A DNA stretch of 64,000 nt from contig CAUYUJ010000048.1 in assembly GCA_963575745.1 (NCBI GenBank), positions 434,001 to 498,000 on the forward strand. Direction: 5' to 3'. How positions within the stretch are numbered: the stretch's first letter is position 1; the number at the start of each line of letters is the position of its first letter. Source of the stretch: Prorocentrum cordatum. Taxonomy: Eukaryota. The notes beneath the pieces were generated by a model that ran no database searches, was not told the origin of the DNA, and was given only the letters and a program-made list of their open reading frames with translations. This document shows positions 11,227 to 50,868 of the stretch, piece by piece. A program made the position numbers and the translations under genes.

Positions 11227-11417
11227 TTAAGTCGGGCGTGTCCCCCTACAGGGGGGCTTTCGACGAAAAATTGAAAATAACCCAGCAATTCCTCCAAAAA
11301 GGTCAGACATACCCAAAAAATAGTCCCTAGACTATTTTTGGATTGTTTTTTGATTAATGTGTGGCTATTTTTGATTTTTCGTCAAAAATCCCCCTGTAGG
11401 GGGACAGGCCAGACTTA
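11227..11417. mobile_element. MITE family A, copy 2
   Basis: TTAAGTCGGGCGTGTCCCCCTACAGG ... CCTGTAGGGGGACAGGCCAGACTTA, with an AT-rich interior. Confidence 0.8.
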
Positions 11418-12193: not shown

Positions 12194-12386
12194 TGAAGTC
12201 GGGCGTGTCCCCCTACAGGGGGGCTTTCGACGAAAAATTGAAAATACCCCAGCAATTCCCCCAAAAAGGTCAGACATACCCAAAAAATAGTCCCCAGACT
12301 ATTTTTGTATTATTTTTTGATTTTTCTTTGGGGGAATTTATAATTTTTCGTCAAAAATCCCCCTGTAGGGGGACAGGCCAGACTTA
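12194..12386. mobile_element. MITE family A, copy 3 (within a local duplication)
   Basis: Nearly identical to 11227-11417. Confidence 0.8.
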
Positions 12387-25462: not shown

Positions 25463-25714
25463 GAGGGAGGAGAGGCGGCACTGGCACCAGTCCCGTGAGG
25501 CGGGTCCTCAGGGAAACGGGGCGCCGAGGCGTCTCGCGCGCCGCTCCGGCTTCCACGGGGCCCTCGGCGGGCCCCTGGCGGATGGCATGAGAACGGCTGG
25601 AGGCCGAGAAGCTGGCCATGGGGAAGGGCCCCGGGGTCCAGGTCCCATTCCCTTCAGGGCCCTTTCGGAGGGGTTCTCCGAAGGGCTCGGGCGACCTCGC
25701 ATCCGCCGCCTCCT

Positions 25715-25748
<34 letters not shown>

Positions 25749-26094
25749 CTCCTCCTCCTCCTCCTCCTCCTCCTCCTCGGGTCGCCTACGGCCCCGGGGG
25801 AAGCCGTGCAGGCCCGTTGGCCTCGCGCCAGACCAGCGGGTGCCGCGGGTCCGCCGTGGCTCCCGGAGCGGCCGGCCGGAGATGTCTCCAGCGGGGCGCC
25901 GAGAGGCAGCGGCACCGCGCCGCCGCGGGGGCAGTCTGCGGCTCCCAGGAAGTGACTGTGCTGGCGTCGGGCTGCAAGCTCAGCATCGTCTCACCGATCC
26001 CCATCCCGGCCCATCCCCACAAGGACATGTCTCAGCCCCACCAGCCCAGCCGCCCAGGTGGGCATATGACGCTCAGGCGTGTCACCGCCCGGGG

Positions 26095-26210
26095 TTAAGT
26101 CGGGCATGTCCCGCTGCAGGAGGAATATTCAAACATAGTGAAACATGTTCTAGAGACAATTTGAACAATAACTGGGATATGTTTTAACTTTCTTCCGAAA
26201 TCTGCCTGTA
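26095..26210. mobile_element. MITE family A, copy 4 (target of the large transposon; its last bases resume at 44098-44117)
   Basis: Starts TTAAGTCGGGCATGTCCCGCTGCAGG and breaks at AAATCTGCCTG-TA. The missing GGGGGACATTCCCGACCTA follows 44097. Confidence 0.88.
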
Positions 26211-26234
26211 CTTGGATGGCCGCGGCGGCTGCTA

Positions 26235-26585
26235 GGTGGTTAGCGCGGATACTAAGGGGTTAGAGGATTTAGTATGTACGTACAAGTGAGTTGTAAGTAG
26301 GTTATAAGTGTTGTAAGTCGGATGTAAGTTGTATAACCAGCTACAACTGGTTAGTAGGAGATACTAACCACTTATAGCTGGAGGCTAACCTTGCTAAGTC
26401 TCTAGTAGAGGTTAGCTCGCTAAGTCCCCACTCTAGCTACCACTTACTAACCACTTAGTAACCACTTAGCTGCCACTTAGTAACCACCCAGTAACCACTT
26501 ACTAACCACTTAGTAACCACATAGTAAGTCCGCTAGCTAGCTTACTTACTAAGTGGTTAGCGGACTTACTAAGTGGTTAGCGGAC
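26235..26585. repeat. Left subterminal repeats (TAACCACTTAG / CTAAGTGGTTA)
   Basis: AT-rich block with many ACTTAG/CTAAGT motifs in both orientations, next to the TIR. Confidence 0.85.
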
Positions 26586-28187
26586 TCTGAGAAGGAGAAG
26601 GAGGAGGAGGAAGAGGAGGAGGAGGAGGAGGAGGAGGAGGAAGAGGAGGGGGAGAGAGGAGGAGGAGGAGAAGGAGGAGGAGGAGGAGGAGAAGGAGGAG
26701 GAGATGTCGAGGAGGAGGAGGAGTAGGAGGAGGACGGGGAGGAGGATGAGGAGGAGGAGGAAAGGGGGAGGCGGCGGCGGAGGCGGCGACGGGCGCGCCT
26801 CAGCCCAAGACGGCCGCTCGACGCGGCGGCCCTGCAGGGCCGCCGCGTCGAGCGGCAGCCTGGCGCGGCTGAGCGCGGCGCAGGCGAAGTTCGCCTGCGC
26901 CGCGCTCTGCGCCGCCATCTCCAGCGGCATTGCCGCTGGCGCGGGCGGCGGGGGGGGCCCCGCGCGCCGCTCGGCAGCCAGAGCGGCCCACCGCACGTAG
27001 CCGTCGTCCACAACCCAGAGGGTTGGGAGACGACGACGTGCGACGGGCCGATGGCTGCCGAGCCCGTCCCACCCCTCGGGGATGTCGAGGAGGATCCCCG
27101 ACATCCCCGAGGGGTCCTCCGAGAGGAGACTGCCCCATGGCTCGGGGTCGCCATCGAAAAACATGTCTTGATATGTTTTTCGATGGCGATCCCGAGCCGC
27201 GAAGCAAAGGGAAAAGGGAGGGCGCGCCCCCGCGCGGCCTGTAAGCCGCACGCGCGCGGGCGGCGTCTCCTCCTCCCCCTCCTTCTATCCTCCTCCTCCT
27301 CCTCCTCCTCCCTCTCCTCCTCCTCCTCCTCCTCCTCCTCCTCCTCCTCCTCCTCCTCCTCCTCCTCCTCCTCCTCTCCGCCTCCTCCTCTCGCCCTCCT
27401 CCTCTCGTCATCATCATATACTCCTCCCTCGTCCTCCTCCTCCTCATCCTCCTCCTCGTCCTCCTAACCCTCCGCTCCTCCCTCGTCCTCCTCCCCTCAT
27501 CCCCTCCTCTCCTCCTCCTCCCTCCCCTCCTCCTCCTCCTCCTCCTCCTAGCTCCTCTCTCTCCTCCTCCTCCTCCTCTCCTCCTCCTCCTCCTCCTCCT
27601 CCTCGTCCCTCCTCCTCCTCCTCTCCTCCTCCTCCTCCTCCCCCCCCCCCTCCTCCTCCCCATCCTCCTCTCGCTCTGAGCTATCTCGTCTTTTTCCTCC
27701 TCCTCATGCTCCTCCTCCTCCTCCTCCTCCTCCTCCTCCTCCTCCTCCGCCTCCTCCTCCTCATCCCCCTCCCCCTCCTCCACCCTCCCCCCCTCGTCAG
27801 AGGAGGAGGGGGGGAGGAGAAGGGGGAGGGGGGGCAAGATGAGGAGGAGAAGCAGCAGTAGGAGCAGGAGGAGGAGGGGGAGAAGGGGGAGGATGAGGGG
27901 ACGGAGGAGTTTGAACGACCGCACCACTGATCAACGACATTAGCGCTGCAGCGCAAGAGGAGGAGGAGGAACGAGGCGGAGAAGAGGAATCGGCGACCAT
28001 GCACTGTTCAGGTGCTGCAGCACCGAAGTGTCAATGAAAAAGGTACGCTACAGCGCAATGCAGAAGGAATCCACGTTTTCAAGGCGGAGAAAAGGAGTCG
28101 TCGACCATGCAACGTTCAGGTGCTGCAGCACCGAAGCATTTAGCAATGTAAAAAAGTGCGCTGCAGCGCCAGTAAGGAAACCACGTT

Positions 28188-30067
28188 TTAGGCTAAAGCG
28201 CACCACCGCGGCTGCGACCATATCGGGCGCGCCACTCGGATGCCGCCGCCCTCGCGCGGCGCCCACGCGAGCGAGCACACGATGCTCGCCGTGTGCGCCC
28301 AAAAGGCGTCGGCATCGCCGCCAAGCACGTGCGCGGAGGCGCGCGGGTGCAGCTTCTCCTTGAAGAAGTAGGGCAGGACCAAGCTCAAGCCATAGTAGTG
28401 GCCGTTCTTGGCGAAGGAGAGGTGTTCCAACACCTCGGCCGCAATGTGCTCCCCTCCTCCGTCCTCCAACAGCACGACGTCGCCGTATTTGACGTCGTGG
28501 TAGCGGCACCGCGCTGCAGCGGACGTAACAAAGTCCGCAGGCCCGAACTGCTGCAGCAGTTCGCGCGAGATGGCCTTGGACGGCCTGGTGGCGTTAACCA
28601 GGCAGTTAACCTTAAAGGTGTCGCCATCCATGAGCTGCCACAGGTGCCGCTCGGTGACGCTCTTCAGGACATTGGCGTCCCAGCCGCTGGAGGCTGCAGC
28701 CCCCGCCTGAAGAGCGTTCGCAAAGCGCTTGCTGGTCTTGTGCTTGCGCTCCAAAACCCAGCACGACGGCAGCGCCACATGGCCCCAACGCCTCACGTAG
28801 TTGGCGAAGTGGTGCAGGTAATGGAACTTCTGCGCCATCGTTTCCTTGCCAAAGACGTTGCTGTATGACAGCAAAAACCTGTTAACCGCAGCCTGCAGCT
28901 TATCCGCGTCTGCCTGACGCCTGGATACTCGTAGGATTTCTTCCACAACGATCGTGTGCGCCTCGAACACTGCGCAAGCCGATCGGACTGCAGGCGCTGC
29001 AGCGTCGCTAGCCACCTCCCTGAAGAAACACGTCAATCCGCCCGCGCGAACGCATGTCCGAACAAGAGGGGTGCAGTACATATCCTACAGAAATTCACGT
29101 GCGCTGCAGCGCATGTATTATTGGTCTGGCGGGGGCGCGAAGCATGCAATGATACTTGCATGGTTGTGAGCCCCTCGCTGGCGGTACACTTGAAATGCTT
29201 GCTGTCAACGTGGGACCTCACGCGCTTCTCGCCGAAGATCGCGCACGTGTCGGGGGAGATGGAGTGGCACCCTGGAAACGACCAGTCCTGGAAATATGCG
29301 TCTGCGCGCGCCCAGTAACCCTTCAACCTTCGAAACATTTGGAACACCCGAATGTTATATGTACCGTTGGCGAAAATACACTGCATCCAATCAACCATGA
29401 CTGCCTCGAGCGGCTTGAGTTTCCGAACCCGCTCAGGCAAATGGGGGTCCCAGTTCCAGCCAAGTCGGCGCTCCAACTCCTGGAACTCGCCCTTGTTCAT
29501 GACGTTGACCCCTTCGATCAATCTGCTGCAGATGGCATCGAGCAACGGCGCCGTCATCGGCTGCAGCCGCGACGCATCTGGTTCCGAGTGGTGAACAGCG
29601 ACACCCGTCGCATCAGAAGCAACTATATCCCGAACTTCGCCCTTCAAGAACACGTTGCGGCACATAAATGGTTTGATTCCTGACGAACCTTTCATTCCGA
29701 TCAAGCGGTGCATTGCATCCTCGTCCGCGATCCGACAGAGCCGCTGCAGCGACGCAAGAAGGCGTAATGGATATATACATGCGCACATGTATGCTAACTA
29801 ATATTGGGTGCTATGCGGCGACCGCTGCAGCGGCTGCATGTAAATGCCGAGGTCCATCTGGATGAGCTCCGTCGCGCCGTCGGGGCGCAGCCGCAAGCTG
29901 ATGCCAGCGCTGAAGTTGTGCCCCTGATCAGGCCAGAACTGCGCGAGGATTGCGTCCAGTAGCATCGTCAGTCCGCGCGGCTGGATGTCGTTCGCGGTCT
30001 TGGCCCGCATCGTCGCGAGCTGGAACCACGCATCCTGCGAACAAATCGCAGCACAACTGGCGCTGCA

Positions 30068-30112
<45 letters not shown>

Positions 30113-30623
30113 CCCTCTCCCCCCCCCCGCATATATCGTTGCTGCAGCAACGCTATCGCGAAAGTCCTCCGACGAAAGCGCCTGCGGGCCGAATTCCGCG
30201 ATCGCCCAGTAGATGCCCCAGGGACTTGCGGTTCTGCGCGTGCGCCAGCGCGTTGCCAGCGCCTATTTCATCGCCGTAAATGATGATGTGCCACGGGCGT
30301 GGCAGCTCCAGCGCCCGCTGCCACAGAGGCTGCATCGCGGGGAGGGCGCTGCAATACCACAGCATTGCTGCTGGACTGCAGATCTCCACCGTGTGCTGCC
30401 CGACTATCATGTTCTGGTGGAGCTTGCCGTACGGCGTGTTCTCACCGACCATGAGCTCCCGAGCGTCTCTGATATCCTGGCGTCGGGATCCCAATTCGGG
30501 GATTCCGTCTCGCTTAACGGACGCCAGGAATTGCGCCATCGCATTACAATGCATGAATGGCAGTTCCGCGCGAAGGCGGGACAGCCGCCGCAGCTTCGCT
30601 GGGCGGTCGTCCTCTGCCGCCAT
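28188..30623 (-). CDS. DDE transposase, CACTA/EnSpm-Plavaka-like. About 4 exons, with at least one 1-bp frameshift near 30221.
   Basis: Ordered motifs IIIYGDEIGAGNAL..RKS(W)GIYWAIAEFG, IADEDA..MKGSSGIKPF-CRN, MVDWMQCIFANG and KFHYLHHFANYVRRWG..SCWVLERKHK. These correspond to the D, D, DxMH-like and KxHxxxH...ER motifs recalled for CMC transposases. Intron 30035-30166 has a GAG|GA donor and TTCGCAG|G acceptor. Confidence 0.82.
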
Positions 30624-31310
30624 CGCGCGCGTTCCCGAGGCAAGCTTGCCTCCGTCGCTGCGCGCGCGCGGAGGGGCCCCTCCGCTAGGGGCCACGGCGA
30701 CTACGGATGGAAATGAGGCTGCACCGCGTGGAGAGCAACCAAATGCGCGCTGCAGCTCTAACTGCCAAGCAACAGTCTGGGGGCACATGGCGCTACAGCG
30801 CCGCTAACGTTCAATGGTGACAATCTGACGCGCTGCAGCGCGAACGTCCTCCTCCTCCTCCATCCTGCTCGCCATCCCCCTCGTCCTCCTCCTCTTCCTC
30901 CCCCTCCTATGCCTCCTCCTCCTCCTCCTCCCCCTCCTCCTCCTCCTCCTCTTCCTCCTCCTCATGCGCCCCCTCATCCTCCCCATCCTCCTCCTCAACC
31001 TACCCATCCTCCTCATCATCCGTCTCCCGTCCCTTCATCCTCCCCGTCACCATCACCTTCATCGTCAACAGCATCAATATCACTCGCCCTCATCATCCGC
31101 CACATCACCATCCAACGAGAAACTGCAAGCGAAACTGCGCTGCAGCGCAACACATTAACACATCATGATCCGCGCGCAAACTTTCAACCGTGGTCCACGG
31201 AGAAGCGCTGCAGCGCAACTCAAACAACACGCTCAACCACGTTCCCTCCAGCCATTACCAATCAATCGAACCAGCATGCTTCAGCAGGCGGTCGCCGAGG
31301 CCGACCTCGC

Positions 31311-31740
31311 TCAGGTCACCTTCATCTTTTGGCGTTCCGCAGCGAGGTCAACGCCTCGTTGAGTTTCTGGTTGGCCACGTCCGAAGCGGCGATGTCCATC
31401 TGACCCCGACCCTGCTACTCATACTCCTCATCCTCCCACATCATCGCCTTCCACCTCCTCCTGATCATCCCCCCTGTCGTCCTTCTCCCCCGCTGCAGCG
31501 GGGGAGTAGCCTGCCGCACTCATGAACCCCACCGTCCTCCTTCTCATCCGCCTCCTCATCCACCTGCAGCTCCGCGGTGCGGATCTGCACCTGCTTCTCC
31601 GCTTTCCTGGCGTTCTTCCGCGCCTCCTTCACCTCTGCTGTAGCAGTCGCCGTCGCTCTCGCGCGGGCCTCGCGCAACTCGTCGCGACGGTCGGCGCGCG
31701 CTTGCGCTTCGAACGGCTTGTCGCAGCGGCGCGCCGCCAT
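31311..31740 (-). CDS. Small charged, coiled-coil-like protein, probably 2 exons
   Basis: MAARRCDKPFEAQARADRRDELREAR...KAEKQVQIRTAELQ, then a CAG acceptor at about 31400 and MDIAASDVANQKLNEALTSLRNAKKMKVT-stop. Confidence 0.45.
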
Positions 31741-32486
31741 TGCGAGCCCAGTGAGGAGGCGGAGGAGGTCCGTTGCCAGCGCCCGCTGCAGCGAACGATG
31801 GCGGCTGCGACGCGCGAGCCAAGTGAGGAGGAGGAGGAGGGGGAGGAGGGGGAGGAGGGCATGCCATCGGCAACGCGCAACATGAGCGAATCGCAGCGCT
31901 GCAGCGCGTGACTTGGCAACAACCATGCGGGAGACAACGCTCGACATCACGAATGATGGCGCTGCAGCGCGCATCGACGAGGAACGACCGGCACTCAAGA
32001 CGAGCACGCCACGCAATACATGGACACCGCGGCTGCAACTGCACACTCACAAACGCGCCAACGCTACAACGGCACCACAAGTCTGACAGGCGCTGCAGCG
32101 CTGCATCGGAACTCAACAGCACGCAATATCTACGCCACCATCCAGGAAAGCGAGCGCTGCAGCGCTGCATCGTGATCATGATGGCGATGCAAACGTTGAA
32201 CACAAAGGCGCCAGCGCTGCAGCGCCCGCATCCAAGAGAACCCGTCAACATATTTGACTTTCATCCTCCTCGTCGCCCGTGCGAGCCGCGCGACCGCCAG
32301 GCAAGACCATCGCCACTACCGTTCATATCATCGGCCAGCGTTCCATCCAACCTCGCACTAATCCTCACCATCCTCCTCATTCCTTCTCCTCCACATGCTC
32401 ATCCTCCTCATCATCCTACCCATCCTCCTCCTCGCCCTCATAATCCTCATCCTCACCTCCATATGCCGACAGTGCCCGTTGCGCGC

Positions 32487-34348
32487 TCACGGCTTGCCGC
32501 GACGGCCAGTGAAGTTCGGGTCGCGGCACGTGCCGCAGCCATTCGGCAGGTAGCGGCATTTGCTGCACCCGGGTGCCATTTGGCCCCGTTTGGCTGCCGC
32601 CTTGCCCTTGGGCTTGGCCTTGGCCTTGGCTTTGGCCTTCCCTTTGCCCTTGGCCTTCGGTTTGGCCGTGCCCTTGGCCGCCGTCTTGCCCTTGCCAGCG
32701 CCTGTCTTGCTCTTGCCCTTGATCGCGCTCTTGCCCTTGCCCTTCTTGCCCTTGCCCTTGCCCTTGCCCTTGCGAGGCAGCTCGCCTTTCGCGCTGCCCG
32801 CAGCCAAGGTCTCGATCGCCTGCAGCACAGCATCCTCGTCTCCGTCTGCTGCTGCAGCAGCATCTTCGTTTGGCGGCGTTGGCGCTGCTGCAGCAGCATC
32901 TGGCGCCGCCGCTGGCAATGCTGGCCCAGCTGGCGAATCGCCAATCGCGGGGGGACTCGCGGGGGGGCTCGCCGTGGGCGCCGCAGGGCGGCGCGGGAAG
33001 AGCTGCAGCTGCAGCTCGTTGGGCGGCGATGGCGGTGGCGCAAACGCTGCCAGCATTTGCTGCATCACGGCCATCGCGTCCATGGGTTGCATTGGCGCTG
33101 CAGGCGGCACGGAGGGTGACCCCGATGGTGTCCATGGCACAATGGCAGTGCTCGGCTGATGCGGCGGGGCGGCAGCCCGCAAGCCCTTGTTGGTCAGCCT
33201 GAGAGGCGCGCGAGCCTTGATGGCGTTGAGACCCGCAGGCCGCTTCAGCGGCGCACGCGTAGCATGAAACCTATCATGCTCTATGCGAGGTGGACCTAAA
33301 GGACCGAGCTCACCGAAGCACCCAAGACATCCAGAACAATCAGCGCTGCAGCGCATGACGGGGTGGCAGCAGCCTCGTAGATGCGATGCCACGTTGGCGA
33401 GGTCGCGCGTCACATCGATCGGCGGGTCCGCATCGGTGTACGCCGCGTCGAAGATGTGCTGAGGGAGCTGCCGAGGATCTGCTGGGAAATTCCAAGTCAC
33501 TGTCGCCGCTTGCCCCGTCGCGCCCCTGCGGCTCGCCAAGAACTGACCCTGTAAAGGGCGACTCGTCGGGAAACCCTAACGCTGACGCGCCGCATCGCAT
33601 TGGCTGCAGTCAGTGCGATGCGATGCGTCTGCGTTAGGCGTTCCCGCCGAATCCCAAACCTTCATCTCCGTCACGATCCCGTAGAGCTGCCCAGGGTTTG
33701 CGTCTGGAAGATGGGTGCATGCCATCAACGCCGCCAACTCTTTCAGCGCGTTCTCGCTCGGAACCGTCAAGCCGATGACACCGCGACGTTTGATCAACGC
33801 GCGCACCTTCGCGACGATGCTCTGGTTGGGGTCGCGAAATAAACCCCAGTCCTGCATGGTAAAGTCCACCAGCCTACGAATCGACGCAGGCATGCTGCAG
33901 CATGATAACATACGTACATTTGAAACATGAACATGGTAACATACATAAAGTACAGAACAAACAATGAAACCATACATGTGAATAACACTTCGGCGGTCCG
34001 ATGTGCAAAGCACGATGGATAGCACCGCCCTGACGCGAGCGTCTGCACGCGCATCTGGAGCGCGGGCGTCGCCGTGCCCACGCGCGCGGCCAGCGCGGCG
34101 CTGAGGCGCGCCTTGTGGCTGTCCGCGAAGCCCGACGCGGTGATTCGATTCTGCAGGGTAGCTGCTTGGGCAGCCCCGATCGTCCCCAAGTTGTGAAGCT
34201 GCAGCTGCACGCTCATGGACAAGGCGGACTGGCTCTGCGCCATCGCGTCGGCGGCGATGACGCCGATCTGCGATGCGAAGAAGGCGTCGCAGCTGTCCAG
34301 GTTATCCAGGATGTGGTTGATGGGTGTGGCCGCAGCCGCGGCAGACAT
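32487..34348 (-). CDS. Multi-exon unknown protein with a Pro/Ala linker, Lys/Gly/Ala-rich tail and C-terminal CxxC-x6-CxxC
   Basis: Coding-like segments MSAAAAATPINHILDNLDSCDAFF..., DFTMQDWGLFRDPNQS...PSENALKELAAL..., FPADPRQLPQHIFDAAY... and KGKGKAKAKAKAKPK...PGCSKCRYLPNGCGTCRDPNFTGRRGKP. Confidence 0.65.
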
Positions 34349-35171
34349 GATGCCCTCCGCGAGGGCGAGGGGGCGCGCGGACGCTCCGAGGGGAAGCGCG
34401 AGGGAGGGCCTCCCACACTGCGAGAGCTGAAGCACTCGGCTGCTGAGGTGGAAGAGAGGCCACAACAGTGCAGATGCGCTGCAGCGCAACGATCGCATGC
34501 AATTAAGGAACACACGTGAGCGCTGCAGCGCTCAGCAGAAATCATCGTCACAAAGTAACATGAAGCGCTGCAGCGCTATGCATGCGCACCATGATGGAAC
34601 GCATGGTAGTGGGCAATAGGGAGAGAGATATAGAGTGATGGAAAGGAGAGGAGGGAGATAATGAGGGACACGGGGGGGAGGGGGGGGGCGGGGGGAGATG
34701 CGAGGAGACACGGGAGGGAAGGACACGAGCGCGGGCGGGCGGGCGGGCAGGACACGGGGGGAGATGCATGATCATTTGAGGAACACGGAAGGGACGGTGC
34801 GAAAGACACGGAGGGGTGGGAGGGACATGGGAGAAACACGGGGGGGGGGGGCACGGAAGAGACACGGGAGGGACACGGGAGTTCGGGGGCGAGCGGGCGG
34901 ACGGACGCGGGAGCGGTGCGGAGGGACACGGGCGGGAGCGCACGGAAGGCAGGTGGAGACACGGAAGGGGCACGGGAGAGACGCGGGAGAGACACGGGAG
35001 ACGGATAGGTATACACGGGAGCTCGGGAGCGGGCGGGCGGGCAGACACAGGAGGGACACGGAAGGTGTCCGAGGAGGGCGCGGGACGGATTCAGGAGATG
35101 CGCGAAGTTTGATCAGGAGCAAATACCGAAGCGATCTGGGAGCCTCGAAGGCAGCTGGGACATCGACAGAG

Positions 35172-35323
35172 GCGTGTCTGTTCAATAGAGGGGGCTATTG
35201 AACAGACACGGGCGTGGCTGTTCAATAGAGGGGGCTATTGAACATGGCATGTTCAATAGAGGGGGCTATTGAACAGACACGGGCGTGGCTGTTCAATAGA
35301 AGGGGGCTATTGAACAGACACGC
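35172..35323. repeat. Four tandem hairpin units TGTTCAATAG-aggg(g)g-CTATTGAACA
   Basis: Units start near 35179, 35219, 35250 and 35290. Confidence 0.9.
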
Positions 35324-36367
35324 CGCTGTCAGACAGCATCACCCCTGCAGAGGGGCACCGACGCTCTCAGATCGCTTCACCCGAAGCTCCCGTTCGACCT
35401 CAGATCAGCCGTCCTGATGCCAACATCCAGCACTCCAGCCCACCCCAACGGCCACCCACGCAGTCCCAGAACACTGTCCACACTGCTGATTTCGAGGTGG
35501 GAGTGAAACTAAGAGAGGCGCGAAGTACATCACGCGGCGCTGCTGCAGCAGCGTCGCGACGAGGTTGACGATGCCGAAACCGCTGTCAACTGCAAAGATT
35601 TACGCTCACGGCTCTGCTGCAGCAGCGTCGCGATGGCTCGAGACTGCTGAGGACAAGGCTGATGGGAGCTGGTGGGGCTGCCAGGAGGCCATGGGGGGAG
35701 CTACTCGGCGGCGCAACGAACTGTGCTGAAGGGGAGCAGGGAGAGTGGCGAAGGGCGATGCGATGCGAGACGGCTTGCCATCTGAAGTGCCCCAGGACCC
35801 CCCCAAGTGCCCCCAAACTTTCCTGGCCAATCCAAGGCCGACCCCTGGCACATCAGCCCATGCGAAAAAAAGTCAGCGGATCAGGATGTGAACGTCGACG
35901 ATGGCAGATAGATGTGATGAGGATATCGGAGCGCCTTTCTGGGCGACAGCGCGGGCGCACCACGCGATCTGGCGCACGAAATATAACCTGGCCTAAACAC
36001 ATGCATGCGTCGGCGTCAGCTATGCTCGCGAACTGATCCAATCCACCCCCCCATTGCTCCCATTGATCTTACATGTTGGGTTGCTACAGCATGTATCCTA
36101 TCACTATGCGTTCGTTGTCCCCCTCGCTCACGGGAGAGTGGATACCCGCTGCAGCGGGCATCCTGTCTACCGTCTCTCTCCAATGTGTCTTCACTCCACC
36201 CCCACGCTGCGTCTCCATCGTCCCCCTCGCATTCCCTATGTATATCACGTCTCCCCCCTGTCTACCTCTACTATAGTCCCCCCTCTCCCCCTGTCTACCT
36301 CTACTGAGTTACCGTCCCATTCCGTCGCCCACCAGTAGTGGAATGCTCCGCGGCCGCGCCGCAGCTC

Positions 36368-37126
36368 TCATGTGGCGCCCGCAGGCGCTGCAGCGCCAGG
36401 GGCCGCTCGGCGGCCGCCTCCGCCCTCGGCGCTCGGCGGCGCGCCCTCGGCGCTCGGCGGCCGCCTCCGCCCTCGGCGCTCGGCGCGGCCGCCTCCGCCC
36501 TCGGCGCTCGGCGCGCCCTCGGCGCTCGGCGGCCGCCTCCGCCTCCGCCTCCGCGGCCTCATCCGCGGCCTCCTCCGCGTGAGGCGCCCCTCGGCGGCCT
36601 CCTCCGCGGGCGCCTGCGCCTCCTCGGCGGCCTCCTCGGCGCCAGCGCCGACCCAGACCTGTGCTGGGCCAGCGTAGTACTCCTCCGCGAGGGCGGCCGC
36701 GTCGGCGCACTCGCCCGCCAGCAGCAGCTCGCAGAGCTGCTGCGCCCTATTGAACCAGCCGCCACGCCGCTGCTGCTGGTCCCCGTCGCGGACAAGCTTG
36801 CCCTTGCCGCCCTTGCTCTTGTCCTTGCCCTTGCCCTTGCAAGGTGGGCCGCCGCCGTCCTTGTCCTTGTCCTTGCCCTTGCCCATGCCGCAAGGTGGGC
36901 CGCCGACGTTGTCCTCGTCCTTGCCCTTGCCCTTGCCCTTGCAAGGTGGGCCGTCGCTGCCGCCCTTGCCGTGCGGGGCGGCGCGCGACGTCGGCCGCGC
37001 CTTGGCGGCAGCGAGCTCGGCCGCGGGGTCCCGCGGCTCGAACCCTGGCGGCGGCGCCGCAGGCGGCGTCGGCCGCAGGACGGCGAACTCCTCGGCGTCC
37101 TCGTCGTAGTCGAGCTGCGACGCCAT
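36368..37126 (-). CDS. KG-rich unknown protein
   Basis: MASQLDYDEDAEEFAVL..., three GPPC(K/G)..KGKG repeats, then RRGGWFNRAQQLCELLLAGE. The 3' part is minisatellite-like. Confidence 0.5.
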   Translation of the reverse strand: MASQLDYDEDAEEFAVLRPTPPAAPPPGFEPRDPAAELAAAKARPTSRAAPHGKGGSDGPPCKGKGKGKDEDNVGGPPCGMGKGKDKDKDGGGPPCKGKGKDKSKGGKGKLVRDGDQQQRRGGWFNRAQQLCELLLAGECADAAALAEEYYAGPAQVWVGAGAEEAAEEAQAPAEEAAEGRLTRRRPRMRPRRRRRRRPPSAEGAPSAEGGGGRAERRGRRRPPSAEGAPPSAEGGGGRRAAPGAAAPAGAT

Positions 37127-37171
37127 CGCTGCGCGATGCAGCGAGCGAAGCTGCAGCTCGCCAAGCTGCAT

Positions 37172-37291
37172 GATGGGCTTGGTTTCCACCACCAGTACCA
37201 TAAGTTGGAGGGAGAGGTCCTCCTCCTCCTCTTCTTTCTCCTCCTCCTCCTTCTCCAACATATGGTAGTGGTGGTGGAAACCAGTCCCATC
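37172..37291. mobile_element. Fold-back MITE family C
   Basis: GGTTTCCACCACCAGTACCATAAGTTGGAG ... CTCCAACATATGGTAGTGGTGGTGGAAACC. Related copy at 58835-59127. Confidence 0.7.
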
Positions 37292-38206
37292 ACTGCAGCT
37301 GAAGCTGCACTCGGGCGCGCGGGCGCGCGACGCTGCAGCGCGCGAAGCTGCAGCTGCAGCTGCGCGGAACAAAAAACAGCGGCGGTGCCAACGACGAATA
37401 CGATGGCGACGACGCTGACGACGATGGACCCCTGCTAACCAGTCGACTGACCCCCCAAAGTAACATCACCCCGCAAAGTAACATCACCCCCAACTGAACC
37501 TCCGAAGGCCAACGACTGGATTGACCTCCCCAAGGCTGCCCCCCTCAGGATAGGAGGAGGAGGAGGGGGATGAGGGGGGGAGGGAGGATTGGAGGGAGAG
37601 GAGGAGGGGGGGGAGGAGGGGGGGCAGGAGAAGGAGGAGGAGGAGGAGGACACGGATGAGGAGGAGAAGAAGGAGAGGGAGGAGGAGGAGAAGGAGGAGG
37701 AGAAGGAGGAGTAGGAGAATGAGAGGGAGGATGAGGAGGAGGAGGAGGAGGAGGAGGAGGAGGAGGAGGAGAGGGAGTATGCGGAGGCAGGAATAGGCAG
37801 AAGGAGCGGGGGGGCGGGGCATGGGTGCCAACTGGTTGTCTTCCTCCTCCTCCTCCTCGTCATACTCCTCGTCCTCGGCCTCCTTCTCCTCCTCCTCCTC
37901 CTCATCATCATCATCATCATCATCCTGCCCCCCTTCCCCTGCTCCGAGGTGCTGGCAGCGAGCGGTGGGAACCGGTGAAAATGAGGGCGTTCCAGAACGT
38001 CGTCCTCAATGTCGTCGTCCTCCTGATCACCCTCCTCCTCCTCAGCATCATCCTCCCTCCACCTTCTTCTCCTGCATGCACTGCTCTGAATTACGTCGTC
38101 TTTAACGCCGTCGTCGTTGTCTCTGTCGCCGTCGCCGCCGTCGCGATGCTGTCTCCGACTGAAACAGTGGTGCTGCAGCACTGACCGCGCGCGCGCCGCG
38201 CGCCCG

Positions 38207-38560
38207 TCACTTCCGCGGCTTCTTCGCGATGTGGCATTGGACTGTCAGCGCAACCGCTGCCTCGCGGTCCCCGCGCTGAAGCGCTTCCCGAATCATGTCG
38301 CACACAAGCTTCCACATGCCAACCTTGGTTTCAGCATCGCGCTTGCGCGCGGCTGCAGCCGCGCGCGGGGCTGGCGCATCACTGGCGGCTGCAGCCGCGG
38401 TCCTCGTCGACGTCGGAGGCGGTGGTGGCGGCGGCGGCGGCGGAGGAGGGGGAGTAGCCGCATATGTCGCATCCGATGCAGCGGACTTCGCATTCGGCGG
38501 CGGCACTGGCTCCGAGGGAAGCCGCCATGGCGGCGTCGCTGCACTCATGTTGGCAGCCAT
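38207..38560 (-). CDS. Small unknown protein
   Basis: MAANMSAATPPWR...RKRDAETKVGMWKLVCDMIREALQRGDREAAVAL. The helical motif loosely parallels GGWFNRAQQLCELLLAGECADAAAL in the neighbouring gene. Confidence 0.4.
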   Translation of the reverse strand: MAANMSAATPPWRLPSEPVPPPNAKSAASDATYAATPPPPPPPPPPPPPTSTRTAAAAASDAPAPRAAAAARKRDAETKVGMWKLVCDMIREALQRGDREAAVALTVQCHIAKKPRK

Positions 38561-39075
38561 TGATGTTCTGATCACAGGTGGCTGCGAACCACATGCAATA
38601 ACATAAAGCGAACATGCGGGCTGCAAGCGCGATCGAAGCGCTACATCAACACGCCAGACACGCAAAATGTAAGTCAGCGCTGCAGCGCGACGCAAAAATC
38701 TGATATCGGCACGCCAGACACCCGAACGTAAATCAGCGCTGCAGCACGATGGGCTCCAAGCACACGAAACGTAAGTCAGCGCTGCAGCGCCGTGAGGTCA
38801 CACATCGACGGCGGCAACGCGCGAGAGGCACACTTGATCGGATCGTAGTGTCGTCGCGCGGCAGCACGCTTGATCATACCAACGATTCGCAATGACGCCA
38901 ACAGTAGCGAACATTGGGGGGATCCACCAACAATCCGCAATTATTATCCCAATCCTCCTCCTCGTTCTCCTCCTCGCCCTCGTCCTCGTGCTCGCCCTCC
39001 TCGCTGCCATTCTCAATCGCACTGCCGGCCGTGATCGCACGCCCCAGCGATGCGGTCGACCGAGCGCGCCGCAGC

Positions 39076-39839
39076 TCAGTCCGAGTCGGCCTCCTCCTCC
39101 TCCGCATCGCCCTCCGCCTCCGCTTCCATCTCCTGGAGCTCATCCGCTTCGCAATCCTTGAGTTCGGCGGTGCACCACTTCGCCGCGGCCGCTTCAGCGT
39201 CATCCTTGCTGCAGCCGCGGTTTGTGCGGAACAAGGCCGTCCTGCTGCAACCGCAGTCTATGCGGACGGCCCGCCAAGCTTGGAGCCGCTGCACCCAATA
39301 GATGCGGGCGCCGCAAGGAACGTCGGTCTCGTGGCGCCGCGGGCGCTTCAGCACCGTGCTCGCCTCTGCCGCCTCCGCCGCCTCCTGAAGCAATTTGGCC
39401 TTGATGTACTCTACGCCCTTCTCGTGCAGCGCCACCTGCAGCTTGTCCCCCCCCCCCCCTATGAGGCGGGGGAATGACAATCTGCAGCTCTGTTGCCTCC
39501 GTATCGCCAAACGGCGGCAGCTGCGCTGTCTTGAAGCACTTGTCCACTGGAACCTGGCCAGTCGCGGCCGGACCGCGTGGTCGGGCGGCGGCCTGGCTCC
39601 GCTGCAGCGAAGAGCGTCGTCGGCGCCGTTGGCCCCGACGACGCGGTGCGCTGATTTTTCAGCCACGTTAGGAACATCGTGCCTCGCAAGCCCTGAGCCT
39701 TGCCGCACACCCACTTGCTCCAACCTGCGGTGGTCACGGTGATGCACTCGCGGTCTCCGATGACCTCGACGGCCGTGACCAGCTCGCGCCCCGTACGGTT
39801 GTCGTGCAACACGACGCAGTCGCGCTTGATCGTCGCCAT
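39076..39839 (-). CDS. Protein with a C-terminal AP2-like domain and acidic tail (frameshifted)
   Basis: Three overlapping frames join into MATIKRDCVVLHD..., LPPFGDTEATELQIV..., KLQVALHEKGVEYIK...KRPRR...RIYWVQRLQAWRAVRIDCGCSRTALFRTNRGCSKDDAEAAAAKW. Shifts near 39610 and at the poly-C at about 39450. Confidence 0.55.
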
Positions 39840-40333
39840 CGCGCGCGCGGCGCGCCGAGGCTGCAGCCCGAGCGCGGTCGCACTTCAGCGCCAAAATTGC
39901 TGCGATGGAGTGATGAGGCAACATGTGCGCGGACGAGGTGCTCATGATGAGGTGCGCTGCAGCGCATGTGAAAGATGAAGCGAAGAGCAACGATCACATC
40001 GAGCACAACAGTGATGACGAAGCCGCTGCAGCGGCATGTCTGTGGGAAAGGCTGATGTCAGCACCAATATTGTACAGTCGCTGCAGCGACGATGCTGGCG
40101 CAACGAATCGTTCCGCGCGCTGCAGCGCCGCGGCAAGTATCGCACTTCGCACCAACCCGCGCACTGTTTACACCAATCGGAGGGCCACGCTCGGTGCCGT
40201 CATGTGCGCTCGCCGCTCCTTAAGCCCCCTCATCCTCCTCCCTATGCCAAACCTTACCCTGCCTCCTCCTCCTCCTCCGCATCACCCCTCCCTCCTGCCT
40301 CATCCTCCCGCGTGGTCCCTCTATATCGCCAGC

Positions 40334-43190
40334 TCAGGCCGTCCTGAGCTTCTTGGCTGGCCGCGGCTGCAGCCGCGGCCACGGCTTCACCGCCAGGAAG
40401 TCGCCCGCGGACAGGGCGCAAGTGTTATGCATCTGGGGCACCCCCACCTGCACCTTGTTGACGCCTGTCCCGAACGTCACGGTCTCCTTTCGGAGCTCCA
40501 TGTTGGGCTCTGAGTCGGACTTTGCCACCACCCAGAAGGGGCTGACAAAGGCGTCGGGGCCCCGCGACCCCTCAGCGGGGGGCCCTGCGAACTGCGGGCC
40601 CACGAAGAACTCGTAGAGGCCAACCTTCCCCAACGAGATGCTCTCCGCAACGCAGCCCGTGCTGACCCGCGTGGACGAGGCTGAAATGCGACCACTCCCA
40701 CCGCGTGGAGCTACATGGCGCGCAGTCGGTAACATCACTGACCTCGTCGCTACGGCCTGACGTGCCCCGAAATCCTCGCTACCTCGTGCTCAGCGCAGCG
40801 CTGCAGCGCGGCGTCGTCGGAGGGGGGCGCGGACGATTGCGGAAGCACAAGTCTGACGAGCTCACCCACTTTGAACGCTCGCTTGCAGCGCGCGGCAGGT
40901 GGGTCCTGCAGGATCTCCAAGTGCAAAATGTTCGCCTGGTACTTCAGCGCTTGGAGCCGCAGCGCCATGTTGCATGCCCCCTTGAACGCGTCCATCGCCC
41001 AACCCTCGTGGGCTGGCGGCAAGTGCTCCTTCGTGAACGGCAACTGCTCCTGCACCCTGGACGTCAACTTGTAATTCTCGAGCAATATGTTTACTTCAAT
41101 CCGCCCGCTCGGCTAACTGCTCCGTGCGCTGCAGCGCATCGACCAACCCATTGCAACTTAAGTACAGGAAATACAATATCGCAGTTACTACCTCCTCCTC
41201 CCCCCTCCCTGCTCCCCACGGGCGGCGGGGTGGCTGCAGCCACGCAATGGAGATCTCTTCGCCCACCAGGTCGCCGTGCAACTTCTTCTGAGCGGTGATC
41301 CCATTCTCCGAGATGGAGAGCACCTCGAAGACGTCATCCACCTCCTTCTTCTGGACGATGTGCTTCCCCACGTCGAACCCTGCACGCCGCATGCGGAAGA
41401 CGTTGCTCTTCAACTCAGCGGCCGACGACGCTGCCGCGCGCGGCGCGTCTGCATCGGCGCTCGCTGGGAACTCGGGTGCGCCATCGCCTTGCTTGTCGGT
41501 CTGCACCGCCTTGCCGAACTCGATCCCCAAGCTCTTCATCTGCAGCTGGGCTGGCTCCCCGAGCTCATGGAGGAAGACCTCTCTGGAGGGTCGCTGCAGC
41601 GACATTGAATGGCGAAAAGCAGGGAGGGAGGGAAACAAGGAGCACACGAAAGGTGGCGTGAGAAGATACCTGTGCTATATCTGCTACGCATCCGAAAGCG
41701 CGGTCTCCTGGCGCTCGCTTCTTCACCAGGTACATGGCACAGCGGACATCCAACTTTGTGATGTGCAAGAAGCCCTGCTCCGCTCCGATATCCAACCTCT
41801 TCACGAGCGACCTTGCGTCGGCCATGAGGTTGTCGGCCGCAGCCACGTCCGCCTTGCGGGACGCGACGTGGACGATCTCGTTTGCCTTGATCCGCCCATC
41901 GCTTCAGCGATTGCGTTTGGGAATAAAGCAATGTAACGGTGCGTGTGTGTGTGTGGGGAGGGGGGAGGGGTGGGTACGCAGTTCTAACAATGCAGCGCAA
42001 TGCATAGATGCGCTGCAGCGCATGTCACTACAAGGGGGCGCCGACAAGCTTATGGATGGTCCTGCACATGCTATCCACCACGTGCTCGCCTGAATAGTTG
42101 GCCTTCACGAGCGCCGCTACGACATACGGGTACGACTCCTGGTGCTTCCCCCATTTAATCGAATTCAACTTGCGCCAGAATTCAGAGCCGCACATCAAAG
42201 TTTGCCCCGAGACGTCCACATTCGTGAAGGTCTTGAGGGCTTCATCTATTTCACGGAGAAGTTCTCCGTTTTGTGGCCCGAGCTCAACAAACTTGCACAA
42301 GTCAGCGATCCACGCCTTGCAAGGTGGGTTCGCGTGGCCCGCTTGCTCGGCGATGTCGCGCCAATCGGGCTTGCTGGAACCCTCAGCGAGGCTGTGTGCC
42401 AAGAGCATCCGCCCACCTGCCTGCAGCAAGCGCCGAGCCGATCAAGTGCTGCAGCACGGTAAGATATAATGCTCCTGCTCCTCGTTCTCACCTCCTCCCC
42501 AACGCGCTCCCACTCATCACCCTCCTCGTGCATCATCCTGGTCCTTACTACATACCGCTATATACTATAGTGGGGATAGGCTGCAGCCTGACCGAATGAT
42601 CTCGGTCTCGTGAACCGCCTCCCTGACGTCGGCGTTCAAAGCCCTCTGCACGAAGTTCTTGAGGCCCTTCACTTTGGCCACCGCGTGCTTGATGATCAAC
42701 CACGTCAGGCCCTTTTTGACTGCCGTCGCAAGTTGCGGATGCAACGCGCGCAGCTTTTTCCGGAGTCGATGTTGTCCCGAGAGTCTGCCAGCGCCTTCAC
42801 TGTGGTCGGCGCCTTGGCCAGCACGCAGCGGAGGAAGACGTTCGCGTGGGAGCCGCCCACTGACGTATACCGCAATGAGTCCAGCGGGGGGCACCGACCC
42901 CCGCTGAGCCGCGAAAGGCGGTCGTTCGCCATCGCGGTCTCTTCCAACTGCGCCCCCTGGGCGCAAATCTTCGCGCCTAAATTGTGAGCCCGCGCAGGGT
43001 TCACTAACGAACCGCTGCGGTTCCGAATGTCGATGCCCATCTGGTTCGGTGGGACCTGCTGGTAATACGCTAGCCCCTCCGCCAGCAGGAACTCCTTCAG
43101 TTGATCCCACCCCGATGCCAACCTCCCCGAGGAATTGCTTTCCTCGATGTACTGCAAGATCTGCTCCTCCTGGCGCGCCTGCAGCGCCAT
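40334..43190 (-). CDS. Large ~6-exon protein with an N-terminal ParB/Srx-like region and a C-terminal degenerate SET-like region
   Basis: Coding blocks at about 43190-42594, 42420-42040, 41900-41668, 41580-41245, 41090-40850 and 40700-40334. N-terminal VPPNQMGIDIRNR..AHNLGAKICAQG..SVGGSH. C-terminal ARCKRAFKVGELV..SPFWVVAKSDSEPNM..NTCALSAGDFL. Frameshift near 42760. The gene is well supported, but the domain names come from motif resemblance only. Confidence 0.65.
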
Positions 43191-43849
43191 GCCAGCGCTA
43201 TATATAGCGCCGAATGCAACGTGCGAGCCCGCGGGCGCGACGGCGGATGCGGCGCGCGGCCGCAGCTTGAGACAAGCTGTCGCGCGGCGTGCGCGTGAAC
43301 ATCGACTTGCATGGACATGCAACTTGCGAGCCAAAATGTTGATCTGGGCTGCAGCCCGAGGCCCATGAAGCACGAGCGCGCACGCGCTGCAGCGCGATGC
43401 GACATCACGACGACAACCATTTTTTTGCGCTGCAGCGCAAAGTAACATACGTGCTATCAAATCTGGAGCGCTGCAGCGCTCAATGCGACCATTGAAAAAA
43501 ACAACGAATACAACAAAACATAATTGACATGTGCATTCAAATTCCTTGCAAACGGAGCTGGGCGAAAATGAAGATCCGAACAACGCGCAATTAGAAAACA
43601 TGCATTTAACTCAACATTCAGCGCTGCAGCGCTTCATATTCAGCGCACGCAGCGCTTCATGTTCATATAAATCCGAAGGCAGCGCTGCAGCGCTTCTCAT
43701 ATTTAAAGCAAAAATCCAGGACACCGACTCCAAATCAAAATGCAAAATTTGTAGCGCTGCAGCGCTCAACGAACAAACTCAGCTCTTTCAAGACGTGGAT
43801 TTACCTTTTTTTCCCTGTGCATGGCCCTTGGATAACAAGTGCAATGTAA

Positions 43850-44071
43850 CCGCTAAGTCACTTATAACCTACTTAGCAAACTAGCTATAAGCGGTTATAA
43901 GTGGTTAGCTAAGTGCGCTAAGCACTTAGCTAACTGGTTATAAGTGGATAGCTAAGTACTTACTAAGTCATTACTAAGTGGGCCACTTAGTAATGACTGA
44001 GTAAGTACTTAGCTAAGTCCGCTAACTACTTACTAAGTATTTAACTTAGCGTAGTAAGTATGTTAAGTACT
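43850..44071. repeat. Right subterminal repeats
   Basis: Same CTAAGT/ACTTAG/TAAGTGGTTAG motifs as at the left end. Confidence 0.85.
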
Positions 44072-44156
44072 TAGCAACCGCCGCGGCCATCCAAGTAGGG
44101 GGACATTCCCGACCTAGTCCAGGGGTCGGTCCCCCACCGATGACCGTGGTCCATAG

Positions 44157-44812
44157 GGCCCACCGCACCCATTTTGGCACACCCCTCACACGCTTTGTGG
44201 CCCCATAGAGAGCTCCACCACAGGCCCAGATGCCAGCGCTTGCATGCGCCCACCGTGCCCATTTTGGCACACCCATCACACGCTTTGTGGCCCCATAGGG
44301 AGCTCCACCTAAGGTCCGCATTGCAGCGCTCGCATACGCCCACCGTTCCAATTTTGCGACACCTCTTGATCGTTTCTAGGCTCCGTAGGGAGCCCCGTCG
44401 AAGGCCCAGATGCCCGCGCTCGCATGCGCCCACCGCACCCATTTTGGCACACCCCTCACGCGTTTTGTGGCCCAAACGGGAGCTCCACCACGGGCCCAGA
44501 TGCCAGCGCTCGCATGCGCCCACCGCACCCATTTTTTGCACACCTCTCACACGTTTGGTGGCCCCATAGGGGCATCCGCCGAAAGCACACAAGGCAGCGC
44601 TCGTATGCGCCCACCGCACCCATTTTGCCACACCTCTCACATGCTTCGTCGCCCCATAGGGAACTCCATCGAAGGCCCAGATGCCCGCGCTCGCATGCGC
44701 CCACTGCACCCATTCTGGCACACCCTTCACGCACTTCGTGGCCCCAACGGGAGCTCCACCGAATGCGGCGCATACAGCGGCAGTGCCCACAACTGCATAT
44801 GGTTGGGTCTTT
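44157..44812. repeat. ~90-bp tandem repeat, about 7 copies
   Basis: GCCCACCGCACCCATTTTGGCACACC...GTGGCCCCATAGGGAGCTCCACC recurs every 90-91 bp. Confidence 0.93.
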
Positions 44813-50054: not shown

Positions 50055-50868
50055 AGGGGGACCGCCAACATGCGTCCCCCACATGCAATTTTGCATTTTC
50101 GCCCACCCAGTGCAGCGCTTCGTGGCCCCATAGGGAGCTCCACCGAAGCCCCCAGTGGGACCGCCCGCATGCGTCCCCCACGCCCAGGTTGGCATTTTCG
50201 CCCACCCAGTACAGCGCTTCGTGGCCCCATAAGGAGCTCCACCGAAGCCCCCAGTGGGACCGCCCGCATGCGCCCCCCACACCCAGGTTGGCATTGTCAC
50301 CCACCCAGTGCAGCGCTTCGTGGCCCCATAAGGAGCTCCACCGAAGCCCCCAGTGAGACCGCCCGCATGCGTCCCCCACGTCCAATTTGGCATTTCCATC
50401 CACCCAGTACAGCGCTTCGTGACCCCATAGGGAGCTCCACCGAAGCCTCCAGTGGGACCGCCCGCATGCCCAATTTGGCATTTTCACCGACCCAGTACAG
50501 CGCTTCGTGGCGCCATAGGGAGCTCCACCGAAGCCCCCAGTGGGGCCGCCCGCATGCGTCCCCCACATCCAATTTGGCATTTTCACCCACCCTTTGGACC
50601 CTTTACAACGCTTCGCGGCCCTATGGGGGGCTCCACCGAAGCCCCCAATGGGACCGCCCGCGTGCGTCCCACACGCCTAAGTTGGTATTTTCACCCACGC
50701 AGTGCAGCGTTTCGTGGCCTCATAGGGAGCTTCACCGACGGCCCCATTGCTACCGCCCGCATGCGTTCCCCCCCGCCCAGCGAAGCGCTTCGTGGCCCCA
50801 TAGGGAGCTTCATCGAAGAAGATATTCACAATTGCGGTACCCACAACTTCATATGGTTGGGTCCTTCG
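50055..50868. repeat. ~100-bp tandem repeat, about 8 copies, related to the 44157-44812 array
   Basis: CGCTTCGTGGCCCCATAGGGAGCTCCACCGAAGCCCCCAGTGGGACCGCCCGCATGCG units. Confidence 0.9.

Follow-up and report, generated by a model that had tools for sequence, protein, structure and literature searches.

A 17.9-kb Transposon of the Dinoflagellate Prorocentrum cordatum, Flanked by TA and Encoding a Transposase of Predicted RAG1-Like Fold

Dinoflagellate genomes are huge and rich in repeats, and their DNA transposons are almost uncharacterised. We describe here a 17.9-kb element at positions 26211-44095 of a 64-kb stretch of Prorocentrum cordatum DNA (assembly GCA_963575745.1, contig CAUYUJ010000048.1, positions 434,001 to 498,000 of the forward strand), hereafter called the window. 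The element is bounded by 24-bp terminal inverted repeats (TIRs) with TA outside both ends, and its genes run in one direction, from a cargo gene at the right end (gene A) to a transposase gene at the left end (Table 1). In our judgement it is likely a cut-and-paste dinoflagellate DNA transposon that belongs to a new lineage within the CMCT clade, a placement suggested by the motif pattern of the transposase and by its predicted fold. This clade comprises EnSpm, Mirage, Chapaev, Transib, ESTA and RAG1, and the features by which membership is judged below follow the available portion of PMC12730594. A literature search, loose in part and including the accessible portions of PMC12130899 and PMC9860276, returned no report of autonomous RAG1-like or CACTA/EnSpm-Mirage-Chapaev (CMC)-type elements in dinoflagellates.

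Ends, target site and subterminal repeats

Comparison of the left TIR with the reverse complement of the right gives agreement at 23 of 24 positions, the sole mismatch being a C/T difference at position 19. The terminal 12-mer occurs twice in the window, and these two occurrences are the ends of the element. The termini read CTTGG...CCAAG, with CT...AG as the outermost bases. On either side of the element and its flanking TA lie the two parts of a miniature inverted-repeat transposable element (MITE), the left TIR of which is alike at 24 of 28 positions to that of an intact copy at 11228. Intact MITE copies (11228-11417 and approximately 12195-12395) read CCCCCTG-TA-GGGGGAC, with a single TA. 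When the right TIR of the interrupted MITE was rebuilt by script with one TA, it matched the MITE TIRs at 22-23 of 28 positions, compared with 19-21 when both TAs were kept and 16-18 when none was. Since the one-TA rebuild fits the MITE end best, the 17.9 kb entered as a single unit and TA was duplicated. The element is thus inserted whole into the TA of a MITE terminal repeat.

Interior to the TIRs, both ends carry zones of short motifs in common. Of the ACTTAG/CTAAGT hexamers in the window, 21 of 25 fall in the scanned end zones (26211-26610 and 43796-44095), and at 26439-26527 Tandem Repeats Finder detects the 11-mer ACCACTTAGTA in 8.1 copies. A sequence-only reading of this DNA had proposed near-identical TIRs with TA on both sides, a reconstructable empty site and matching subterminal repeats; the direct comparison of the ends, the MITE rebuild and the motif counts bear out all three.

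The right subterminal zone has, along its inner edge (43827-43840), a partial internal copy of the terminal motif, CCCTTGGATAAC, to be compared with CTTGGATGGCC at the terminus. The MITE family has 28-bp TIRs (TAAGTCGGGCGTGTCCCCCTACAGGGGG) and is present as two near-identical copies 1 kb apart; the copy that served as the target of the large element is shorter and diverged (26096-26210 and 44098-44116), and weaker TIR-like matches occur at about 2821, 3160, 47491 and 57101. A metagenome scan with the 18-nt shared terminus found at least 119 loci; among those listed, none matched past the 18 bases, and the best was alike at 35 of 60 positions. These loci, on GC-rich and apparently prokaryotic contigs, were rejected as copies of the element and are regarded as chance matches to a pattern that is too short.

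The transposase, the cargo genes and an element-wide palindrome

The transposase gene is found some 2 kb inside the left end of the element. Its four exons are separated by introns of 132, 111 and 140 nt with GA-AG, GA-AG and GT-AG boundaries, and when one extra base is skipped the joined exons give 683 codons with no stop. Fourteen related proteins (E ≤ 1e-3) were found among 2089 candidates, four of them named P. cordatum proteins of 62-92% identity, and a library clustered at 50% contained 672 representatives at E ≤ 1e-3, 141 at E ≤ 1e-10 and 8 at E ≤ 1e-30. Full-length members of the family have about 650-757 aa, and those that are named come from Prorocentrum cordatum, in keeping with the dinoflagellate source given in the sequence-only reading. 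Its description of a large TIR transposon with extra genes and non-CACTA ends likewise holds. An alignment of 27 members shows no variation at D124, D342, H345, K493, H495, H499, E517, R518 or H520, and conservation of at least 90% at D225, C244 and C247; the family pattern is D ... D-x18-CxxC ... HxxxH-x17-E.

None of the 140 stop-to-stop open reading frames (ORFs) of at least 80 aa in the window reached the Pfam cut-off, the five sub-threshold matches being to acidic or low-complexity families. No transposase family of Pfam was found with 13 chosen ORFs at E ≤ 10, nor with the 27 relatives, for which the 15 listed families (E 0.059-1.3) were each seen in one or two members. Transposase_21 and DUF4218, searched by HMMER only, were absent from the 140 ORFs (E ≤ 0.01), the 13 ORFs (E ≤ 10) and the 14 and 27 relatives. 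Against PDB sequences the transposase profile gave two rows, both at E of about 0.1 and to the unrelated stress protein YcjX; against 2.9 million viral contigs it gave 91 pattern matches, none of which was confirmed. One P. cordatum relative, P0001, bears the UniRef name "RNA-directed RNA polymerase"; the name was rejected, as this protein has no Pfam hits and the family model is RAG1-like.

The fold was predicted with AlphaFold2 for the family member P0010, with a predicted local distance difference test score (pLDDT) of 89.5 and a predicted template modelling score of 0.88. In a Foldseek search of the PDB with this model, all rows listed to rank 44 are RAG1 or amphioxus RAG1-like proteins (best E 4.3e-9); HzTransib was matched at E 1.8e-3 and the P element at 1.6e-2. 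VIA-align gave Z 14.6 for the RAG1 core (442 residues aligned, model residues 38-559) and 13.3 for BbRAGL, and 9.0, 8.9 and 7.7 for the P element, HzTransib and Hermes, respectively. Model residues 562-690 were matched to BAH domains with Z 11.4-9.5 (TNRC18 11.4, ORC1 10.0, DNMT1 BAH1 9.8). The model places D124 in a strand, D225 directly behind a strand and E517 in a helix, the arrangement to be expected of an RNase-H-like core. These residues would be the presumed counterparts of RAG1 D600, D708 and E962, and the CxxC and HxxxH pairs those of C727/C730 and H937/H942. As modelled, the transposase is a DDE enzyme with a predicted RAG1-like fold and a C-terminal BAH-like barrel, and its CxxC and HxxxH pairs are ordered as in RAG1, Transib and CMC transposases. 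We know of no solved structure of a CMC enzyme, so that a best match to RAG1 by itself cannot part a Transib-like from a CMC-like transposase.

The copy in the window is a decayed member, and the assemblies of public sequencing runs keep a version with intact motifs. In a comparison covering window positions 25500-45000, contigs from four runs (X1, X2, X3 and X7) cover the interior of the element at about 99% identity and have common differences from the window. The window copy reads KPFMC, and all four runs insert AAC behind 29667 to give KPCFMC; in translation, the run contigs also change Q to H (29381), V to F (29395, before DWMH) and A to V (29370, in FVNG). One X1 contig of 2167 nt joins gene A to the right end of the element and stops at 44096, which fits a repeat whose flanks vary among copies. 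In each run, word depth is even across the transposase and cargo pieces, which is weak evidence. As a separate observation, 76 of the 143 changes listed for X1 have C or G in the window and T or A in the run, and the reverse is seen in only 24; this skew could reflect deamination in one copy lineage or biased repair.

Coding potential in the remainder of the element was scored with a codon log-odds model whose training set was 863 codons from the transposase gene and gene A, the two genes backed by homology. All segments scoring at least 25 are on the minus strand, and their clusters amount to about seven candidate genes, among which homologues were found for the transposase and gene A only. 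The minus-strand gene arrangement with a transposase near the left end, as first read from the sequence, is borne out; the count of about seven genes is fair as a number of candidate clusters, and for two of these it is backed by homologues. The closest matches to gene A, with 95-96% identity, are P0161, which represents a cluster of 22 sequences, and P0162, both from P. cordatum; seven further unnamed proteins match at 47-99% identity. Gene A has no Pfam or PDB sequence match, and its AlphaFold2 model is poorly folded (pLDDT 45.5) and was left out of the fold search. The four segments between 40346 and 41891 may be further exons of gene A or a separate gene. Gene B matches no Pfam family at E up to 10, the score of gene D derives in part from low-complexity Lys/Gly and acidic runs, and gene E encodes a Lys/Gly-rich tail with the end GCSKCR..GCGTCR. 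Inspection by eye had suggested a ParB/sulfiredoxin-like motif for gene A and, for gene B, an AP2-like stretch; both impressions were dropped, as no support was found for the former and no tool supported the latter. The proposal that the element carries accessory genes for DNA or chromatin binding of its own gained no support from any tool used: neither Pfam nor the PDB gave a match to the cargo ORFs, the product of gene A, the single cargo protein to be modelled, folded poorly, and the only reader-like module found, the BAH-like domain, is part of the transposase itself.

The interior of the element is marked throughout by a 12-bp palindrome, GCGCTGCAGCGC. All 30 exact copies in the window lie inside the element and none in the 46 kb outside it; when up to one mismatch is allowed the total rises to 38, of which 37 are inside, against a shuffle expectation of 0.45. 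The sequence GCTGCAGC is confined nearly as closely (71 of 74 occurrences). Copies cluster upstream of gene starts, and single copies lie in or beside introns, those of the transposase included; each of the three transposase introns holds one or two CTGCAG cores. Coding-like sequence, taken as 17 minus-strand segments that make up 38.7% of the element, holds just 1 of the 30 copies (binomial 8e-6); these segments were hand-picked from the codon-bias set with the acidic low-complexity ones left out. The read-through ORFs of gene A relatives (47-70% identity) have ALQR or RCSA ahead of the gene, which are translations of the palindrome, a hint that related elements have kept the motif. The presence of GCGCTGCAGCGC throughout the transposase gene and the cargo, together with its absence from the flanks, argues for an interior that is one co-evolved unit and not recently captured host DNA. 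We favour the view that the palindrome may be a binding site for a dimeric protein encoded by the element.

Table 1. Features of the element and of its target site, in window positions
Feature	Position	Strand	Remarks
Interrupted MITE ("MITE-A"-like), left part	26096-26210		Left TIR from 26096, TAAGTCGGGCATGTCCCGCTGCAGG
TA target-site duplication, left copy	26209-26210		From sequence and MITE rebuild
Left TIR (24 bp)	26211-26234	+	CTTGGATGGCCGCGGCGGCTGCTA; 23/24 against right end
Left subterminal zone	26235-26588		Packed with ACCACTTAGTA/TTACTAAGTGG motif in both orientations
Low-complexity (GAG)n/(CTC)n block	26589-27900		Repeat scan
Transposase gene	28188-30623	-	Four exons: 30623-30167, 30034-29855, 29743-29156, 29015-28191; stop 28190-28188
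H to Q in invariant DWMH	29381	-	Window DWMQ; all four runs read H
3-nt deletion, first Cys of CxxC gone	29666-29668	-	Run contigs and codon arithmetic on ORF 29036-29797
Frameshift	30218-30223	-	One extra C in CCC run (near 30221); frame shifts between ...NRKS and WGIYW...
Palindrome cluster (3 copies)	30830-31216		GCGCTGCAGCGC, upstream of gene start
Candidate gene F	31534-31791	-	Codon bias only, score 23.7; no Pfam match
Palindrome cluster (5 copies)	31896-32225		GCGCTGCAGCGC, upstream of gene start
Candidate gene E	33914-34384, 33645-33872, 32511-33083 (within 32511-34384)	-	Scores 33.8, 19.6, 40.0; no Pfam match
Palindrome cluster (3 copies)	34476-34576		GCGCTGCAGCGC, upstream of gene start
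Nested foldback, about 250 bp, near element midpoint	35128-35378		Four 16-bp-stem hairpins, TGTTCAATAG-AGGGGG-CTATTGAACA
Candidate gene D	36590-37279	-	Codon bias only, score 65.7; no Pfam match
Candidate gene C (weak)	38210-38797	-	Codon-bias score 16.1
Candidate gene B	39079-39881	-	Codon-bias scores 38.2, 15.4
Four candidate segments	41718-41891, 41234-41581, 40783-41091, 40346-40657	-	Scores 23.6, 41.1, 29.9, 19.1
Cargo gene A, first gene at right end	42076-43190	-	Exon matches 43190-42747, 42759-42586, 42429-42076; conserved family
Palindrome cluster (6 exact copies)	43384-43765		GCGCTGCAGCGC, upstream of gene A
Right subterminal zone	43838-44071		Same ACTTAG/CTAAGT-type motifs as left zone
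Right TIR (24 bp)	44072-44095	-	23/24 against left end
TA target-site duplication, right copy	44096-44097		From sequence and MITE rebuild
Interrupted MITE, rest of right TIR	44098-44116		GGGGGACATTCCCGACCTA

Placement among known transposons

Members of the CMCT clade share a motif pattern in the transposase, target-site duplications of 2-5 bp, similarity to RAG1 and, for the most part, CA...TG termini. The motif pattern is present in this family: D225, C244-x2-C247, H495-x3-H499 and E517 are conserved in the 27 relatives, and the first Cys lost from the window copy is restored in the four runs. The duplication of TA in the one insertion examined falls in the 2-5 bp range, and the predicted fold supplies the RAG1 similarity, by both the VIA-align (Z 14.6) and the Foldseek (E 4.3e-9) comparisons. 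The label "CMC-like" in the sequence-only reading therefore stands at the wider CMCT level; since the ends are not CACTA and the duplication is not 3 bp, it does not extend to canonical CACTA/EnSpm.

The nearest described analogue would be ESTA, a lineage of TA-duplicating, RAG1-like transposons of rust fungi described in 2025 (PMC12730594, available portion), the two being likened by description. TA duplication together with a RAG1-like transposase, by which ESTA is recognised, is found here at the level of the predicted fold. As far as the available portion of that paper describes ESTA, both can carry extra genes, and in both the transposase is recognisably similar to RAG1 only, by HHpred in ESTA and by predicted fold in the present element. 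They differ in host, which is a fungus there and a dinoflagellate here; no TET/JBP dioxygenase was detected in the cargo of this element, and the BAH-like C-terminal domain and the element-wide palindrome set it apart from ESTA as that portion presents it. The suggestion that the family was undescribed must accordingly be narrowed: a TA-duplicating RAG1-like lineage is already known in ESTA (PMC12730594, in the part available), and it is for dinoflagellates that no report was found.

Several points weigh against placing the element in a new CMCT lineage as described. Its ends are CT...AG and not CA...TG; the available portion of PMC12730594 gives CA...TG ends as holding "in most cases" of the CMCT lineages, not as absolute. 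At the sequence level, the searches gave no tie of the transposase to any named superfamily. TA is palindromic, and one copy cannot strictly separate a duplication of TA from a TIR one base longer without duplication; the X1 contig stops at 44096, one base short of the 44097 expected were TA universal. The TA rule, the gene order and the membership of the cargo rest on one insertion and short contigs, and the transposase of the window copy is broken by the frameshift, the loss of the Cys and the change of H to Q. The support for the cargo other than gene A is codon bias, scored with a model trained on the same element.

An ordinary, diverged member of the plant-type CACTA/EnSpm (CMC) group would account for the direct and inverted subterminal repeats, the large size with several genes and the C(2)C/H(3-4)H DDE pattern (here with three residues between the His pair), and a CMC enzyme would also be expected to match RAG1 best, no solved CMC structure being known. 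Mirage elements, in addition, make 2-bp duplications. We nevertheless regard this assignment as unlikely, because no transposase Pfam match, and in particular none to Transposase_21 or DUF4218, was found in the 140 ORFs or in the 14 and 27 relatives, because the ends are CTTGG...CCAAG in place of CACTA/CACTG or CAC, and because the duplication is the 2-bp TA and not 3 bp. The RAG1 core and amphioxus RAG1-like proteins are the best structural matches, and its motifs D, D, CxxC, HxxxH and E follow one another at intervals similar to those in RAG1; both would suit a true Transib/RAG-like transposon whose closest relatives are RAG1 proteins. Transib elements, however, have 5-bp duplications and CACAATG-like ends, whereas here the duplication is 2 bp and the ends are not heptamer-like. 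HzTransib is matched far more weakly than RAG1 in both structural comparisons (Z 8.9; Foldseek E 1.8e-3), and the general Pfam scan of the 140 ORFs, in which no family reached the cut-off, detected no RAG2-like partner. The reader module in RAG is the PHD finger of RAG2, on the partner protein, and here the BAH-like module is fused to the transposase. An origin among the closest relatives of RAG1 is on balance slightly less plausible still than a CACTA/EnSpm one.

The cargo might also have been captured by chance, the 17.9 kb being host DNA or a mosaic mobilised once between the ends of a smaller transposon. A single insertion was inspected, five of the seven candidate genes are without homologue evidence, and the long simple repeats and the foldback of the interior could be later insertions. 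The distribution of GCGCTGCAGCGC speaks against capture, as it marks the whole interior, including transposase introns and the regions upstream of cargo genes, and is absent from the 46 kb outside. The ALQR and RCSA translations in the read-through ORFs of gene A relatives, the joining of gene A to the right end on one run contig and, as a weak point, the even word depth across transposase and cargo argue in the same direction, and we give chance capture about the same small credence as the CACTA/EnSpm assignment. An integrated virus-like element, such as a polinton-like element or a giant-virus fragment with a promoter motif of its own, could likewise have TIRs, one-way genes and a private motif upstream of each gene. 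The Pfam scan of the 140 ORFs, however, detected no family of capsid, polymerase, packaging ATPase or integrase, the 2.9 million viral contigs yielded no relative, and a DDE transposase and TA duplication are present, which together make a viral origin highly improbable. The TA duplication is classic for the Tc1/mariner/pogo group and is the one feature shared with it. Neither a DD34E/D transposase with a paired-like helix-turn-helix nor any Tc1/mariner, pogo or helix-turn-helix Pfam family was found; the transposase has a predicted RAG1-like fold and RAG1-like motifs, with a large insertion domain carrying CxxC/HxxxH. The size and the subterminal repeats are atypical of that group, and membership in it is the explanation that we can credit least.

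A new CMCT lineage thus remains the preferred reading, and it would imply the following scheme of transposition. Transposase from intact copies elsewhere in the genome would bind the ends and subterminal motifs, pair them and cut by the hairpin route known for RAG1/Transib-type enzymes, and the cut element would reinsert at TA with a 2-bp stagger. The BAH-like domain may steer or regulate the transposase through chromatin or protein contact. The cargo genes and GCGCTGCAGCGC would form the element's own module for expression or regulation, in which the palindromes ahead of each gene would be recognised by a dimeric DNA-binding protein.

The element provides the transposase family with a defined anatomy, namely ends, a TA target, a subterminal motif and a gene order, and the RAG1-related CMCT clade would thereby be extended to alveolates. 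The 672 representative clusters lacking Pfam recognition are a real annotation gap, and at least one member is mislabelled publicly. The P. cordatum gene-prediction workflow, according to the available portion of PMC10666404, screened transcript-based models for transposable elements and removed those found. The predicted fusion of a RAG1-like core with a BAH-like module bears on the coupling of recombinases to chromatin, and GCGCTGCAGCGC is a concrete candidate cis-element. A bolder proposal, which we advance tentatively and hold to be possible rather than probable, is that a large, dinoflagellate-wide RAG1-like lineage invisible to Pfam has here its first member of defined anatomy. In this lineage a recombinase with its own BAH-like reader would be combined with a private regulatory system of conserved ORFan genes and a palindrome, which would stand ahead of every gene as well as in introns and be read by a dimeric DNA-binding protein that the element encodes. 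If this were true, the private regulatory system would offer a rare and testable handle on promoter or regulatory DNA in dinoflagellates, for which few signals of this kind are known, and the BAH-like reader on the recombinase would be a functional parallel to RAG1 with the PHD finger of RAG2.

Repeats within and beside the element

Within the GAG/CTC block, the stretch 26838-26924 matches residues 485-513 of the P. cordatum protein P0004 at 96.6% identity. The P0004 gene model fuses a transposase, this stretch and a host HHL1-like protein, and the fusion is probably a prediction that runs from another copy of the element into a neighbouring gene. The arms of the foldback near the midpoint are 90% complementary over their outer 20 nt and 96% over their inner 24 nt; it may be a nested insertion, and no obvious duplication is seen at its flanks. 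Apart from six short matches of 45-89 bp, the interior of the element has nothing in common with the rest of the window.

In the 64-kb window, Rfam and tRNA scans found nothing. Its G+C content per kb lies at about 0.51-0.71, which fits the genome value of 59.7% given in the available portion of PMC10666404. Just to the right of the element, at 44158-44763, a 90-bp unit is repeated in tandem (6.7 copies, 77% matches), and a related array lies 6 kb farther on, at about 50094-50820. Across 43728-44378 the runs show a word depth that exceeds the depth over the element by a factor in the hundreds, indicating a very abundant satellite-like repeat.

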